DNA from: a virus
Lineage: Duplodnaviria; Caudoviricetes
Strand: one strand, 5' to 3'
DNA length: 38,224 bases
IMG/VR virus record: IMGVR_UViG_3300020042_006260
Location: 1-38,224 of that record
Every line of letters starts with the position of its first letter. Position 1 is the stretch's first letter. Both the position numbers and the translations under genes were made by a program. Below, piece by piece: positions 18,123 through 38,224 of this stretch. The notes beneath the pieces were generated by a model. That model was not told where the DNA came from, searched no databases, and worked only from the letters and a program-made list of their open reading frames with translations.

Positions 18123-19220
18123 ATGGAAATCAAGGTAAGATCACTAGATGGAGTAGAACCAAAGAGTGTGCAGGAAGTAGAAAAAGAACTACTTGAAAAG
18201 CATGAGAAGGAGATTAGTAATGAAGTACAAGTTGGCTTGGATACTTCTATTATTGACAATGCAGCTCAGGACAGTCAACCTGAAGAAGAAGAATTATCTG
18301 AAGAAAAAGTTCTTTCATATATTGGTAAGAGATATAATAAGCAAATAAATTCATTCGATGAATTAATGGATCAGAGACAGAGCAATGAAGAATTGCCTGA
18401 GGATGTTGCAGCTTATTTAAATTATAAGAAGGACACTGGAAGAGGGTTCGAAGATTTCCTAAAGCTTAGGAAGGACTACGATGCTATGGACCAGACACAG
18501 CTTCTTAGAGAGTACCTTGTAGATACACAGCAGAATTTAGATGACGAGGACATTGATGTCTTGATGGAGGATTACTCCTACGATGAGGACCTAGATGATG
18601 ATTCAAGAATTAAGCATGTAAAGATTGCAAGAAAGAAAGCTATTGCAGAGGCTAAGAAACACTTTAGTTCTCAGAAGGAGAAATATAAGCTTCCACTTGA
18701 GTCAGGTGGTATAGGCTTGTCTTCTGAAGAGAAGGAAGAATTCGAGGCTTATCGTCAATATACAAAGGAGTCAAAGACGATAGAGGAGGAAAGTAATCGG
18801 AAGCGTAGATGGTTTGACCAAAAGACAGATGAGGTTTTTAGTAAAGACTTCAAGGGATTTGAGTTCGAAATTAACGACAAGAAGATTTTATTTACTCCGG
18901 GATCTAGTGCTGAGTTAAAGAGCATGCAGTCAAGCCCAATGAACTTTGTTAATAAGTACTTGGATGAGAGTGGGCTAATTAAGGATGCAGCTGGGTACCA
19001 CAAGTCTTTGTCTATGGCAATGAATCCTGACAAGTTTGCTAAGTTCTTTTATGAGCAAGGGCAAGCTGATGCTACCGATGACGTTTTACGCAAGACCAAA
19101 AATATAAATATGTCTGAGCGAAGAGCTCCTGAGGTTGTTAATAAGGGTGGAATGCAGGTGAAGGCGGTTTCGCCAGACTCTGGAAGGAGTCTAAAAATTC
19201 GCAGTATTAAAAAATTATAA
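18123..19220 (+). CDS. Putative capsid scaffolding protein
   Basis: Acidic, helical, between portal and capsid, with a basic C-terminus. Confidence 0.7.
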   Translation: MEIKVRSLDGVEPKSVQEVEKELLEKHEKEISNEVQVGLDTSIIDNAAQDSQPEEEELSEEKVLSYIGKRYNKQINSFDELMDQRQSNEELPEDVAAYLNYKKDTGRGFEDFLKLRKDYDAMDQTQLLREYLVDTQQNLDDEDIDVLMEDYSYDEDLDDDSRIKHVKIARKKAIAEAKKHFSSQKEKYKLPLESGGIGLSSEEKEEFEAYRQYTKESKTIEEESNRKRRWFDQKTDEVFSKDFKGFEFEINDKKILFTPGSSAELKSMQSSPMNFVNKYLDESGLIKDAAGYHKSLSMAMNPDKFAKFFYEQGQADATDDVLRKTKNINMSERRAPEVVNKGGMQVKAVSPDSGRSLKIRSIKKL

Positions 19221-32936: not shown

Positions 32937-35900
32937 TGAACGAACAGGCTTTAAATTATTCGTATGAACTATTCAAGAAGGATGGCTATACCGGAACACT
33001 TGATCAGTATAAACAACTTATAAGTACAGACAAACAAGCTCTTGATTATTCATTCAATCTATTTAAGAACGATGGATACTCTGGAAGTTTGGATGATTTC
33101 AATGGACTTATTAGCCCTATGGCTGAGACGCCTCTTGTTCAATCACCTATTGAGCCAGTAAAAAAAAAAGATACGGGATTACCATCTGTGGATGGTGGTT
33201 CGGAGCCTGCAAAGTCTGATGGCTTAGAGTCTCTTGCTGTTAAAGTTCAAGATGAACGTATATTAAATAAGAAACCTAGAGTAGAGAGACCTATAGTTTC
33301 TAGTGAGTCAATTAAGGCTGATCCTGATCAAATTGACTTTGATAGTAAGGTTCAGAAACAAAAGGTTTCTGCTCCAATGTCTTATTCAAATATTTTTGCA
33401 AAAACAATAGCAGATCTTCCATCAGACTTAGCTGAAACTTGGTCTGTTGCATCAGCATTTATAGAAAGACAGCTTGGTAAAGCCGGGGTCCCTGGGGCTA
33501 ATCCTAATTTAACAGCTAAGGATATCTATTTTTATAATGTAAGTGATGATTGGAGAAAATATACCGATGAAGTTTTCCCTACTAACCAAGAGGATAGATC
33601 TACATTTTTAGGTGGTGTTGTTTCTGGGCTAGGACAGGTTGTTCCAATGGTTGTGTCTGGAGGTATATCAGCCGTATCAAAAGGTAAAGCGGCTATGGAT
33701 ATAGCAAAGACTGCATTAAGTACCGGAACAAAACTTACTCCATTTATAAAAATGGGTAAGGATATAGCAAGTCAAGCAGCATCTCCAGCGGGATTAATAG
33801 GTGGATCTCAAATGTCTTCAGCAATGTATAGAGAGGCTATAAATTCTGGAGCAACAGAAGATCAGGCGCAGAAATATGCTATTGAAAACTTCTTTGTTGG
33901 AACAGTTGTGGAGTCACTTCCAATACAGTCAATGTTCTCAAGAATGTTAAAGAAGGAACCTACTGCAAATATTTTGAGAATATTAAAAGAAGGCGGTATT
34001 GGAGCAGGTCAAGAGGCGATAACAGAGATGTGGCAAACGACTTATTCTAACTGGTCTGCCGAAAGAATATATGACTTTAATAGAGAGATGCTAGATGGTG
34101 TTGGCGAAGCTGGAGCAGTTGGTGGCACTGTTGGATTTATATTAAATGCATCATTGAATGCATTATTAGGAAGAAGAGCTAGAGTTAAAACAAAGGAAGA
34201 GGGAGAAATTTTAGATAAGTCAATAGATGAGGTTAAGTCAAAAATAAATACTGTAAATACAAACAATGAAAACATATCATCTGTTGCTGAGGAACTAGAT
34301 TCTATAGAGCCAATTGTTTTAAATTACGGAGACTCTAAATACTTTTTTGCTAGAGATAAATCTGGCAGAATGGAATTAGCTGATGAACCTATGCTTGAAG
34401 ACCAAGCAAAGTCAATGTCTAATATGCTTGGAAAAGTTTATAAAGGACTTGAATTTTCTATTGAAGAGGTGGCATCTAATGATCCATACACTCCAGTAAA
34501 ATATAATGTTATTGCTAACGAAAAAATAAACGAACAACAAGATGCCATTCAAAAGCAAGCAGCAGGTGAAGTACCTGTACAGCCAGGAGCCACAGTTAGC
34601 CAAGAAGTGGCGCAAGGAGAACCCCAAGCAGAACCTAAAGGCGTTACCAAAGAAGAAGAAGTAAACATTGAAAGGAAGGCAGAAAACAAAAACACTGAGG
34701 TAAAAAATGTCTCATTTAATGAAGAACAAACAACTGTTAATGATGAGGGTATTTTTGAATTAGCTTTTGAAGGACCTTTATTAGATAATTATGATTTTCT
34801 ATCACAAGGAAGTGAGAGCAGGGTTTACTTGAGTAAAGATAAGAGTCATGTAATAAAATTATCAGAGCCTTACACTTCTAAAGACCCTAATGTTTATGAA
34901 AAAAGAGTTACGACTGGATTATTAAAAGATATATTTGGTAACTCTGGTGTAGAGGTTGTTGGGTACTATGAATATAATGGTACAAAAAATCCAATATTTA
35001 GACAGGACTATGTAGAGGGTCAGCCTCTAACGGAAAATGAAGTTGAAGATTATCTAAGAAACAATAATAAAGTTGTTGAGATTGATAATAAATTCTACAC
35101 TAAATACAATGACGTACTATATAGAGTATCTGATTTTGAAAACAATTTAATCAGAGATAACAGTGGTAAGGTGGTTCCAATTGATTTGAATATTTCTGAA
35201 GTAAAAGATAGTAAGATTAATGATAAGTATGATTCAGAGGTATCTGCATTACAACCTCAAGTCGTTGCTAAAGAAGGTCAAACCCAAGAAGTAGTAGATG
35301 TATTTCATGGAGGGTCAGTTAAAGATATTCAAATTGCATCAATAAACAATCCACTATATGTTTCAGAATCTGAATCTCAATCTGCTGCCTATGCAAAAGG
35401 AAATCAAGGCAGTGTTGCTAAATTTAAAATAGATAAAAGTAAAATAGCAAATGAAGATGAGGTAAGATCTGTTATTAATGAGTTAGGATTAAAGCCGAAA
35501 GATGAAAGTTGGTCAGTAGATGAGTTGAATATATACGAACTTATTGATCCGAATTTTGATACTGCTATGTCTGAAGAATCTATCAATAATCTTTTTGGAG
35601 AATTAGAAAGAAGAGGATACGGTGGTGCTGAATTCGTGGGTATGAATATCGAGACCTTAAAAAATGACATCAACGATATTGTAATATTTAATCCTAAGTT
35701 AGTTGCTCAAGAAGGTCAAGTAGAAGTATCACCTGTATCTCCTACTCAGCAGTTAGATTTAGAAGGAGAGGTAGCCTTACTTGAGCAGTTACTTGCACAG
35801 GAGGAGACTGCACCTACTGTATCCGCTGGTATATCAATATTAAGTGATACTGATGTACAGGAATTGAGAAATAAAACTCAATCAAGATCTCAACAAGCCA

Positions 35901-38224
35901 CAACAAAACAAGAGAAGGACTCTGCTAACGCAAGAATAAAGATTATTGATACAGCTAAGAGGGCCATTAATACTTTGAGGTCTGTGTTCCCTGAGATTGA
36001 CATTGTATTACATGATGATCAGGGTAGCTATAACGCTGCTATGTTAGAAGTAAGTGGAGTAGAGGGATCAAAAGGTAACTTATTTTTAGATACAACACCT
36101 GATGGAAAAAGTACAGGCAGAATTGATATCAACTTATCAAAGGCTGATGGCAGAACAGTAGCTCATGAGATTGCACATGCCATACTATTAAAATCTTTTG
36201 GGGATAATTCAAGCTTGTTCAATGACTTTAGAACAAGACTATCTAAGGTACTTAATACAGATGCAAACAAGCAGTTAAATGATTTTGCTTCTAGGTATGT
36301 AGACCCTAATACAGGACAGCTTCTAGATGTAAACCACGAGGAGTTCTTGGCTGAATTAACTGGTATGTTAGAACAGCAGGAAACAAATGTATCTGTGACT
36401 ACAATGCAGAAGATAGCTGCGTTGATTAATGAGTTTGTGTCTAAGATTACAGGTGGAAAGTTCAAACCGTTTGAGGACACTAAGAATACCAAGGATGTAG
36501 TTGACTTCTTTAATACTATCTCTGGTGCTATCAGAGAAGGTAATGAGATACAGCAACTAAATAGTCAAGAGCCATACACTTCAGGTGTAGCACTACCTGT
36601 AATTAACCCTAATGAATTTGTTGGCAAGAAGTTTAGATCTAAGCTAGACATAGGGGATTACAAATTCCCATCCGGCATAGACATTCTTAGAATAGCTAAT
36701 CTTCCTATAAAGACTTTAACTGAATTGGTTAGACAGTATGAAGGTAGAGTTGTAATCATTACAAGTGATGCGACTGGTTATGGTGTTGATAAAAATGGAG
36801 ATCCTATCCTAGGTGGTTTTGGATTTGCATCTAATGAAAAGAATGTTAGCGATGGTATAGGATTTGCAAGCGTTAGTACCGGCACAGTAAAAGGTACTTA
36901 CACAGCGGCAGAAAAAGCATACGGCACTGGTAAGACTCTTGTGCTAGTAATGATTCAGCCACCGAATACGACTATTAATAATTCCTATGGTGCTAAGTAC
37001 ATTATTAGAGGGCTAAAAGAAATAGCTGTTTCTTCTAAGGAAGAGTTAAGTAAAACCAAGGAGTCAATTAAGACCTTTATAAAAGGATCTACTGCTATTC
37101 AAGATGAATTAAAGAAGACTGATACTAATCAAAAGAGAGGATCAGAGAAAAGATTATTTGATTTTATTGATAGCATAGATGAGAATACCAATATAGAAGA
37201 GGCAGTTAAAGAGTTCCTTAATGATACCACTTTTACCATAAGAAAAGAACTTGGTCAGGGAATATTGCTAAGGAATAAGGACATAAGAACTGATTCAAGT
37301 ACTACATACAGTAAGATTGCATTTAATAGTATTGGATACAACCTATATGATTTCTTAAAGGAGTATGGTGATAATACAATACTCACAGATGATTTAATTC
37401 TAAATGATATTGGTGGATATGTTGTTGGAGGATTTGAGTTAGATGTATTGCCTAATGATCAAAGAGAAGCTCTTATAAATGAAATTCAAAATAAAGGTAT
37501 AGTACATCCATTATTCAATGCCAAACTCCCAGGTACTAATCATTTTAGATTAGATGCTCTTTATGATGTTGAGGAAAACTTTGCTCAGTACGCAGTACCT
37601 GATACTCAGATATCTTTATCTAAAGAAGAAAGAGATGCTTTGGTAAGAGAAATTTACAAAGATAATAAGTTTTATCTTGCTGAGTCTAGATCTATACCTT
37701 TAGAAAAAAGAACCTATACTAATTTAACAGTTGCGGCTAAAACTGAATTCAAGAATAGTTATTTAAAACCTAGGGGATTACTAATTGAAATAGCCCCTAA
37801 AGTCTCAACAAAGGTAGCAAGAGGAGAAGGATTTATTCCTAAAGAAGGTGCAGCTGAACAAATGTCGAAGAGAAATTTTGTAAGCAGATCTCAAATAAAT
37901 GATGCACTATCAAAGGCATCTGGATCAACACAAGTTGCAACTACAAAGGGTAGTTATAGAAAGGCGGCAAATATTTTAAAGAATATTGGTGTAGATGGTG
38001 ATGTTTTAGACTATGGAGCAGGGCTTGGATTAGGGACTGATGCCATGAGTGAGGTCCTTGATAAGCCTGTTGATTCATTAGAAATTAATCCAGAAAGATG
38101 GAAAGGAATTAGGCCAGTAAAATATACTGATGCCAATCAAATAGATAAGAAGTATGATGGAATAGTATCCTTGAATGTAGTGAATGTAGTTCCGAAAGAA
38201 GTAAGGGACTTCATTGTACTTGAC
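32936..38224 (+). CDS. Giant polyvalent (probably ejected) protein, >=1763 aa, truncated by the window end; not in ORF track
   Basis: Manually translated: open from ATG 32936 (MNEQALNYSY...) to the end. Gly-rich hydrophobic segments ~33605-34170; kinase-like 34790-35194; ART-like 35294-35695; HEIAH zincin at 36164-36178 with downstream EEFLAE; SAM-MTase VLDYGAGLG at 38003-38029. Confidence 0.9.
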   Translation, partial: MNEQALNYSYELFKKDGYTGTLDQYKQLISTDKQALDYSFNLFKNDGYSGSLDDFNGLISPMAETPLVQSPIEPVKKKDTGLPSVDGGSEPAKSDGLESLAVKVQDERILNKKPRVERPIVSSESIKADPDQIDFDSKVQKQKVSAPMSYSNIFAKTIADLPSDLAETWSVASAFIERQLGKAGVPGANPNLTAKDIYFYNVSDDWRKYTDEVFPTNQEDRSTFLGGVVSGLGQVVPMVVSGGISAVSKGKAAMDIAKTALSTGTKLTPFIKMGKDIASQAASPAGLIGGSQMSSAMYREAINSGATEDQAQKYAIENFFVGTVVESLPIQSMFSRMLKKEPTANILRILKEGGIGAGQEAITEMWQTTYSNWSAERIYDFNREMLDGVGEAGAVGGTVGFILNASLNALLGRRARVKTKEEGEILDKSIDEVKSKINTVNTNNENISSVAEELDSIEPIVLNYGDSKYFFARDKSGRMELADEPMLEDQAKSMSNMLGKVYKGLEFSIEEVASNDPYTPVKYNVIANEKINEQQDAIQKQAAGEVPVQPGATVSQEVAQGEPQAEPKGVTKEEEVNIERKAENKNTEVKNVSFNEEQTTVNDEGIFELAFEGPLLDNYDFLSQGSESRVYLSKDKSHVIKLSEPYTSKDPNVYEKRVTTGLLKDIFGNSGVEVVGYYEYNGTKNPIFRQDYVEGQPLTENEVEDYLRNNNKVVEIDNKFYTKYNDVLYRVSDFENNLIRDNSGKVVPIDLNISEVKDSKINDKYDSEVSALQPQVVAKEGQTQEVVDVFHGGSVKDIQIASINNPLYVSESESQSAAYAKGNQGSVAKFKIDKSKIANEDEVRSVINELGLKPKDESWSVDELNIYELIDPNFDTAMSEESINNLFGELERRGYGGAEFVGMNIETLKNDINDIVIFNPKLVAQEGQVEVSPVSPTQQLDLEGEVALLEQLLAQEETAPTVSAGISILSDTDVQELRNKTQSRSQQATTKQEKDSANARIKIIDTAKRAINTLRSVFPEIDIVLHDDQGSYNAAMLEVSGVEGSKGNLFLDTTPDGKSTGRIDINLSKADGRTVAHEIAHAILLKSFGDNSSLFNDFRTRLSKVLNTDANKQLNDFASRYVDPNTGQLLDVNHEEFLAELTGMLEQQETNVSVTTMQKIAALINEFVSKITGGKFKPFEDTKNTKDVVDFFNTISGAIREGNEIQQLNSQEPYTSGVALPVINPNEFVGKKFRSKLDIGDYKFPSGIDILRIANLPIKTLTELVRQYEGRVVIITSDATGYGVDKNGDPILGGFGFASNEKNVSDGIGFASVSTGTVKGTYTAAEKAYGTGKTLVLVMIQPPNTTINNSYGAKYIIRGLKEIAVSSKEELSKTKESIKTFIKGSTAIQDELKKTDTNQKRGSEKRLFDFIDSIDENTNIEEAVKEFLNDTTFTIRKELGQGILLRNKDIRTDSSTTYSKIAFNSIGYNLYDFLKEYGDNTILTDDLILNDIGGYVVGGFELDVLPNDQREALINEIQNKGIVHPLFNAKLPGTNHFRLDALYDVEENFAQYAVPDTQISLSKEERDALVREIYKDNKFYLAESRSIPLEKRTYTNLTVAAKTEFKNSYLKPRGLLIEIAPKVSTKVARGEGFIPKEGAAEQMSKRNFVSRSQINDALSKASGSTQVATTKGSYRKAANILKNIGVDGDVLDYGAGLGLGTDAMSEVLDKPVDSLEINPERWKGIRPVKYTDANQIDKKYDGIVSLNVVNVVPKEVRDFIVLD
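32945..33115 (+). repeat. Tandem 30-aa repeat at the N-terminus of the giant protein
   Basis: QALNYSYELFKKDGYTGTLDQYKQLIS / QALDYSFNLFKNDGYSGSLDDFNGLIS. Confidence 0.85.
33160..33201 (+). promoter_or_regulatory. Candidate -1 programmed frameshift signal
   Basis: A10 run (GTA AAA AAA AAA GAT), 6-nt spacer, then stem GGATTACCATC-TGTG-GATGGTGGTTC. Confidence 0.55.
34542..34664 (+). CDS. Nested +1-frame small basic protein (40 aa) inside the giant ORF
   Basis: MPFKSKQQVKYLYSQEPQLAKKWRKENPKQNLKALPKKKK*; A-rich leader AAAAAATAAACGAACAACAAG; resembles standalone MPFKS..Q...L....P..A..W small phage proteins. Confidence 0.7.
   Translation: MPFKSKQQVKYLYSQEPQLAKKWRKENPKQNLKALPKKKK

Follow-up and report, generated by a model that had tools for sequence, protein, structure and literature searches.

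The window that we analyzed, a 38-kb stretch of DNA (38,224 nt), is a linear virus record estimated by CheckV to be 63% complete, which encodes a terminase, a portal, a 473-aa capsid-type protein and crAss muzzle domains. The nearest GenBank relatives of the 473-aa capsid protein belong to phages infecting Maribacter, Flavobacterium and Cellulophaga, so that the host of this crAss-related phage is probably a member of Bacteroidota. One small gene of the window lies wholly within a giant ORF. The features of interest are as follows:

18123..19220 (+): scaffold-like gene, between the portal and major capsid genes; without a nested gene in this genome
32936..38224 (+): giant host ORF, 1763 codons, running off the end of the window
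34527..34541 (+): A-rich initiation region, with A at 34529, 34530, 34536 and 34539 (positions -13, -12, -6 and -3) and no Shine-Dalgarno
34542..34664 (+): nested small gene, ATG to TAA, 40 aa, in the +1 frame of the giant ORF
codons 536-576 of the host ORF: frame -1 reading of the nested gene, an acidic, nearly hydrophobe-free linker
34784..35188 (+): Kinase-PolyVal domain (PF18762), giant protein aa 617-751, immediately following the nested gene
35243..35297 (+): decayed copy of the last ~18 codons of the nested gene, behind the kinase cassette (21.9 bits, E 1.8e-4)

The giant gene has 536 open codons in its frame ahead of the nested ORF and at least 1228 behind it. Kinase-PolyVal (E 1.4e-10) is the sole Pfam match of this ORF and is present in only 2 of 89 loci examined. 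The designation of the giant as a virion protein rests on synteny and on the GenBank label of its syntenic counterpart in phage elemoE, structural protein. The end of the ORF (37960-38224) contains the sequence VLDYGAGLG, which we take to resemble a class I methyltransferase motif; no methyltransferase was matched in Pfam at this end, where the ORF is cut by the window.

The nested ORF is intact, and its translation is identical to that given in an earlier note on this DNA. The encoded 4.9-kDa peptide is strongly basic (13 K/R vs 2 D/E, pI 10.4) and contains no cysteine and no hydrophobic signal. AlphaFold2 predicted two helices (residues 6-15 and 17-26; pLDDT 87.5, pTM 0.53) followed by a basic tail. 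Neither the peptide nor its aligned family members matched any Pfam family, PDB sequence searches with two family profiles gave nothing beyond weak matches to kringles and artefacts of summed repeats (designed beta-propellers, LRRs), and Foldseek retrieved only uncharacterised phage proteins from BFVD, none at E<=0.001, and no match from the PDB, where VIA-align reached a best Z of 2.5. These results mean that no fold is assigned and are no proof of a new fold. In a near-identical strain, 9 extra bases follow position 34649, with both frames kept.

Conservation of the nested frame and its start

When the synonymous codons of the giant protein were resampled, an ATG followed by 36 open codons arose at this locus with P=0.21. 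The nested ORF of a single genome is thus not far beyond chance, and it is the comparison across relatives that decides. An IMG/VR scan with the peptide alignment yielded 80 loci, in all 80 of which the ATG is present and a longer ORF encloses the small one, which occupies its +1 frame; the enclosing ORF is the giant gene in 75 cases and a scaffold-like gene in 5. From these, 73 giant-nested sequences were placed in gapless register (3 were dropped for indels) and de-duplicated to 61. The ATG and open frame, which the earlier note expected homologous giant genes to keep, are retained in 61 of 61, compared with 12.4 expected. These sequences share an amino acid identity of 0.80 when read in the small frame, compared with 0.52 in that of the host, and entropy at host codon positions 1, 2 and 3 is 0.90, 0.47 and 0.25, that is, variation is concentrated at host position 1, the wobble position of the small frame.

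Because this set was chosen by the peptide, we drew a second set of 80 loci picked by a neighboring gene of 136 aa. The nested ORF was found in 49 of these, including a cysteine-bearing variant that was detected only after profile iteration. The matches sit 4.4-6.6 kb behind the marker, and in 29 of the 31 negatives the sequence runs on for less than 5.4 kb past it; among loci with at least 6750 nt downstream, 43 of 45 carry the nested ORF. The two exceptions have no giant ORF at the usual place (L133 8385-12831, L134 5158-9170), and both records are short fragments. In one of the 49 positives (L114), a stop at codon 30 cuts the product to 29 codons. Entropy across 24 de-duplicated members of this set is 0.79/0.48/0.45, compared with 0.54/0.39/1.21 for the marker gene as a control.

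Codon differences between the window and 23 close relatives point in the same direction: 156 synonymous and 55 nonsynonymous in the small frame vs 5 synonymous and 190 nonsynonymous (97% nonsynonymous) in that of the giant, with a slight bias toward the small frame, as the relatives were filtered on the first nine residues of the variant found in the window. In addition, related-phage contigs from three freshwater or fungus-labelled metagenome runs stack on 34542-34655 only, with loose ends on both sides (summed depth in run X3, 11,758 vs 1.5 and 2.1 in the flanking bins), so that the small gene appears as a conserved DNA island between unrelated flanks. The sequence comparisons show purifying selection on the nested frame. 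The frame-specific variation anticipated in the earlier note is thus present, and its description of a dual-coded, fully nested gene, with its own start and stop inside an uninterrupted host ORF, holds at this level of evidence.

The same note had proposed that the disordered-looking linker of the giant is shaped by the nested gene, and this is borne out by composition. Large hydrophobic residues make up 3% of the real host segment vs 23% of the whole giant, and back-translation of the peptide with phage codon use left the host frame open in 0.5% of draws. The host frame thus appears to be constrained, but only loosely, and the text of this stop-free acidic linker appears to be dictated by the small gene. 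The giant protein would need the 34542-34664 segment to be merely stop-free and disordered, in which case the third positions of the small gene would spell E/Q/G/V/A in the host frame. Lysine-rich text in the +1 frame and glutamate-rich text in the host frame would be compatible, and therefore an old free-standing gene could settle in acidic linkers.

Flavobacterium ribosomes are described as ignoring Shine-Dalgarno sequences and being stimulated by A at -3, -6, -12 and -13 (PMC6847099). The start in the window has A at all four positions, in agreement with the claim of the earlier note that its leader resembles those of real genes. Across 126 nested starts, A occurs at -13/-12/-6/-3 in 88/83/70/80% of cases, compared with 67/64/47/63% of 1130 gene starts and 37/39/34/35% of 15,353 other +1-frame ATGs in long genes. 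The full start-site matrix lends the nested start weaker support than these four positions suggest: the median scores are 0.67 for nested starts, 5.76 for real starts and -6.02 for controls, and 3.7% of the controls reach the score of the window. Such an intermediate score is expected, because the leader must also code. Judging from the sequence evidence as a whole, the nested gene is almost certainly real and translated, presumably by an internal ribosome start that does without a Shine-Dalgarno.

A large family in three genomic settings

The window peptide matched phrog_1375 at E 0.0063 over residues 3-39, a weak single-sequence match, but 16 of 35 aligned members matched it at E<=0.1 (best 9.4e-6). 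Two core members of that family, Patience gp10 (E 1e-31 to phrog_1375) and Barnyard gp9 (3e-24), provide the connection to actinophages: gp10 matched our family profile in a profile-profile comparison (81%, E 1.2e-5), and a gp9 query matched 486 actinophage records. These profile matches show that the nested gene is a member of PHROG 1375, a very large family to which no function is assigned; the family profile recovered 3,237 clusters at 50% identity (E<=0.001), and about 2,600 IMG/VR stretches match the peptide patterns. The likeness to gp10 and gp9 consists of the core motif, small size, a very basic composition and a usual position near head genes. The annotated PHROG 1375 members are free-standing, whereas the gene in the window lies wholly inside another gene, and in actinophage members a basic N-terminal extension replaces the Met-Pro start. 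In Barnyard, the homologue (gene 9) shares the head module with further small, very basic genes (genes 8, 9 and 13; L336 5805-7131).

Two other assignments were considered. DUF3008 (PF11450) came up solely as a language-model neighbor (0.85-0.86, carried by 14-15% of a cluster), and 0 of 35 members match it at E<=1. A capsid accessory protein of the Patience gp4 type is an unlikely identity, the Patience homologue being gp10; the matches listed in the PDB sequence and fold searches included no gp4 chain.

Free-standing homologues occur in phages of at least three bacterial phyla. Five such copies, in phages 023Pt_psg01, C75C1, S-CBS2 and P-RSP2 and in Streptomyces phage FlowerPower, have a -1 frame that closes within 3-5 codons. 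In a scan of 80 loci with a free-standing-type query, 46 were non-nested, 29 +1-nested (4 of them doubtful) and 5 unclear, and the -1 frame was open in only 3 of the 46 non-nested loci; the same scan included 2 other-frame and 3 antisense cases. The standalone homologues that the earlier note predicted thus exist, and they begin at the same Met as the nested gene. Its further claim that gene callers miss the nested gene also held, with one reservation: the gene is unannotated in cultured Flavobacterium phage elemoE 6-9C and in GenBank MW202828, where it is likewise nested, but 11 close homologues, which may or may not be nested, have been called in metagenome collections. Free-standing genes may also lack annotation in GenBank, as in C75C1 (OQ984151 34579), S-CBS2 (NC_015463 34225) and P-RSP2 (HQ332139 7034), and several Gordonia phage records have no feature under the family match.

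In 133 of the best 150 family representatives, no more than 2 residues separate the N-terminus from the start of the conserved module; 2 have it at an internal position, and 46 carry extensions of at least 60 aa, up to about 1000 aa. The module also heads proteins of 400-1400 aa (P0054, P0125, P0158, P0166; L371, L392, L434), mostly without a named family, several of which come from phage contigs of 140-200 kb. In the cysteine variant, two core residues are replaced by a cysteine pair, always together (L117, L123, L124, L128, L135 and others; elemoE, NC_055854 52512-52640), possibly forming a disulfide between the two predicted helices.

We then considered where the gene resides in whole genomes. 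In 40 hand-picked records, about half of them known positives, so that the counts give no frequency, 27 have a match, each exactly once; 18 of the 21 near-complete records among them match and 3 do not, and in the window, a family search found the nested gene alone. Maribacter phage Panino has no match to the family. A second host was found through a clade of scaffold-like genes, collected with the conserved half of five scaffold-like proteins, in which 39 of 80 loci carry a nested copy at codons 26-69 of the scaffold-like gene; none of the 80 closest relatives of the scaffold in the window carries one. In two further genomes (G018 and G019), the gene is free-standing directly behind the stop of the giant gene. 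Sequence comparison therefore shows one copy per genome in three alternative settings: the giant gene, the scaffold-like gene and free-standing.

The giants of G018 and G019 align with that of another locus, L144, over an N-terminal and a C-terminal block; in L144 the gene is nested at the end of the first (N-terminal) block, and the host-frame segment has no counterpart in the orthologous giants of G018 and G019. At the free copy of G018, 55 codons of the giant's frame remain open and resemble the host motif, pointing to a formerly nested state of this copy. Origin of the nested arrangement by loss of the stop codon of the giant was rejected, because the conserved C-terminal block precedes the free copy in G018 and G019 but follows the nested copy in L144. 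Each of the two host genes can contain either peptide variant, and a tree of the 40 residues requires 6 label changes vs 38.6 in shuffles, although it is too short to root or to count moves reliably. An apparent third host gene, terminase (L375/L376/L378, also L414), was dismissed as doubtful: these are GC-rich open frames, and the terminase likely starts where the small gene stops.

The nested gene marks the border at which the variable middle region of the giant begins. As in the window, decayed copies of its 3' end follow domain cassettes in the giants of L020, L004/L103, L031 and L007, suggesting that cassette insertion takes place where the nested gene ends and leaves a short duplicate. 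A second match to the nested 3' end in the window (35693-35731) is not significant.

Possible function and relation to known systems

We lean somewhat toward an explanation in which this conserved second gene would be translated from its own A-rich start on the late structural mRNA, to give a basic peptide for head assembly or the head interior; late production is proposed because both nesting hosts lie in the virion module. We put at about even chances the narrower proposal of a late basic peptide associated with the head or with packaged DNA. On this proposal, the 4.9-kDa product with its two predicted short helices would work in head assembly or inside the head, its conserved F3/Y11-L12-Y13/P17/A20/W23/L35-P36 core docking on the prohead or on packaged DNA and its lysine tail neutralising DNA, as a minor and probably non-essential internal head component. 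Against universality of the nested gene stand its absence from 3 of 21 near-complete records and from Panino, and its truncation in L114.

Genomic neighbors are consistent with a head-related role. We scanned 64 long neighbors of non-nested copies and 10 host proteins, of 153 listed; 47 of the 64 neighbors are nameless, and 17 have a PHROG name, 11 of them a terminase, portal, protease or capsid, with several of the named ones coming from related phages. The Patience gp10 gene lies between the portal and scaffold genes, among those for particle proteins, and gp10 is listed as a virion protein in mass spectrometry data (PMC4324244). As tabulated, its stringent spectra number 1 in particles, 4 in cells at 30 min and 2 in cells at 2.5 h, counts that contaminants also reach, gp86 for example with 12 (PMC4324244 Table S1). 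These spectra show translation of a free-standing family member, albeit one that is distantly homologous and extended by basic residues at its N-terminus. The homologue in cluster B mycobacteriophages is found near 60 kb of a 68-kb genome, which we presume to be outside the head genes.

The same data can be read differently. It is conceivable, but in our view doubtful, that the gene is real and its peptide acts in the infected cell, as a late regulator binding nucleic acid or ribosomes or as a packaging aid, without being a part of the head. The excess of Patience gp10 spectra in cells over particles would fit such a role, as would the 6 of 17 named neighbors that are non-head genes, and because the family occurs in phages whose hosts include Flavobacterium, Synechococcus, Prochlorococcus, Streptomyces, Mycobacterium and Gordonia, the target could just as plausibly be a conserved component of the cell as the capsid. 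However, both nesting hosts and most named neighbors are head or packaging genes, the higher count for gp10 at 30 min than at 2.5 h matches the pattern of particle proteins gp11, gp13, gp14, gp15 and gp16, albeit with very small numbers in the tabulated data, and low counts are expected of K/R-rich peptides, which yield few detectable tryptic fragments, a single one of at least 6 aa in the case of the window peptide. Rather unlikely, by our estimate, is that the ~38 conserved residues act as a T4 CTS-like module for capsid targeting, which alone would be a small internal protein and, when fused, would carry cargo into the prohead and be cut off by the head protease. The N-terminal position of the module in 133 of the 150 best representatives and the 46 extended proteins would be explained in this way, and a KE[SAG] motif occurs within 16 residues behind the module in 10 of these 46 vs 3.6 in shuffles (P 0.0015), the T4, phiKZ and SPN3US proteases being described as cutting after Glu (PMC5694885). 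That motif was chosen after the sequences had been seen, though, and plain [ILV]xE is not enriched (14 vs 13.4); moreover, T4 CTS propeptides are given as 10-20 residues long (PMC5694885), the copy in the window has no cargo, and no prohead protease gene was identified among 19 window proteins scanned.

Two further alternatives dispense with the gene itself. One, which we consider very improbable, is that +1 frameshifting yields a shortened giant protein, of which the +1 text would be the tail. The A-rich leader could be cited in its favor, along with three database proteins that join the host and small frames (P0021, P0091, P0025), although these are more simply assembly frameshifts. The ATG present in all 80 peptide-selected loci, the conserved initiation signal and the shared Met of the free-standing homologues speak against it, as does the closure of the +1 frame 0-24 codons upstream, directly before the ATG in L026 and L076. 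Even less credible is that the DNA is conserved for another reason, such as a motif of the host protein or a cis-acting DNA or RNA site, with the +1 ORF as a by-product. The single-locus chance of about 0.2 would allow for this, but the almost exclusively nonsynonymous host-frame changes, the variation at the third position of the small frame, the giants of G018 and G019 that do without the segment, and the match of the +1 product to free-standing proteins, 43 of 46 of which have a closed -1 frame, all argue otherwise.

Overlapping viral genes are usually explained as new-on-old overprinting or as partner pairs such as Rz/Rz1. In embedded spanins (lambda Rz/Rz1), the smaller gene likewise lies entirely within the larger one, out of frame with it, and is readily overlooked in annotation (PMC6139136), and two-component spanins are described in embedded, overlapped and separated layouts, with no family in that survey having both embedded and non-embedded members (PMC6139136). 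Unlike spanin families, the present one is embedded in two unrelated hosts and also free-standing, even among close relatives; and whereas Rz and Rz1 are partners in one complex, a partnership between the nested peptide and its host protein is only hypothetical. Identification as an Rz1-type o-spanin was rejected, since the peptide has no lipobox cysteine or hydrophobic signal and the host is a protein of more than 1763 aa in the virion module, not an i-spanin.

In de novo overprinted viral genes of the phiX174 B, K and E type, one DNA stretch encodes two proteins, one of which is disordered over the overlap. Here the polarity appears to be reversed: the nested gene is old and widespread, with free-standing homologues in at least three phyla, and the host-frame text, missing from orthologous giants, would be a newly acquired by-product. 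De novo overprinting was therefore rejected, because the nested frame is the old one. T4 internal proteins with a CTS resemble our family in being small and basic, with an N-terminal module able to lead other proteins (PMC5694885), and they are associated with the head, as our peptide may be; no sequence or fold match to them was found. Polyvalent phage proteins are represented by the Kinase-PolyVal domain in the variable middle region of the giant, a likeness that concerns the host protein only.

Embedded genes as such are already known; what is new, judging from these genomes, is a single family both embedded, in two unrelated hosts, and separate. The literature covered by our search, which excluded most subscription journals and bioRxiv supplements, held no description of this nesting and no elemoE proteomics. 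An old and very large family that has entered unrelated host genes, and that may be nested in one phage and free in a close relative, offers a natural series in which both the origin and the reversal of full nesting can be studied. It also implies that the 'disordered linkers' seen in giant virion proteins and scaffolds of these abundant aquatic phages hide unannotated genes, and hence that proteomes have been searched without their products. The cultured pair of elemoE and Flavobacterium BAL314, together with Patience, makes the function of this very large uncharacterised phage family directly testable.

A more far-reaching scenario, to which we give little credence at present, is that PHROG 1375 is both a near-universal capsid-targeting or DNA-condensing micro-protein of tailed phages and a mobile 'nesting' cassette, which has moved repeatedly into, between and out of the acidic linkers of unrelated essential virion genes, and whose conserved 3' end serves as a landing site for polyvalent cassettes. 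Repeated moves of this kind are conceivable because lysine-rich text read one base back is glutamate-rich. If this were true, and a second basic micro-gene does likewise, linker nesting of old genes would be a general unannotated layer in abundant aquatic phage genomes.

That second, unrelated basic small ORF, with a core of EWxxxMKxPxPHxNKKKY, was not found in the window and lies in the +1 frame of the same scaffold-like linker, alone or behind the first gene. It was observed at the N-terminal end of the scaffold-like gene in L277, L278, L285, L290, L294, L295, L298 and L299, and also in L303, L313, L315, L323, L324, L243, L312 and L328. It matches phrog_6310 weakly (E 3.5e-4), and its entropy by host codon position is 0.75/0.54/0.38 across 14 unique, motif-selected segments.
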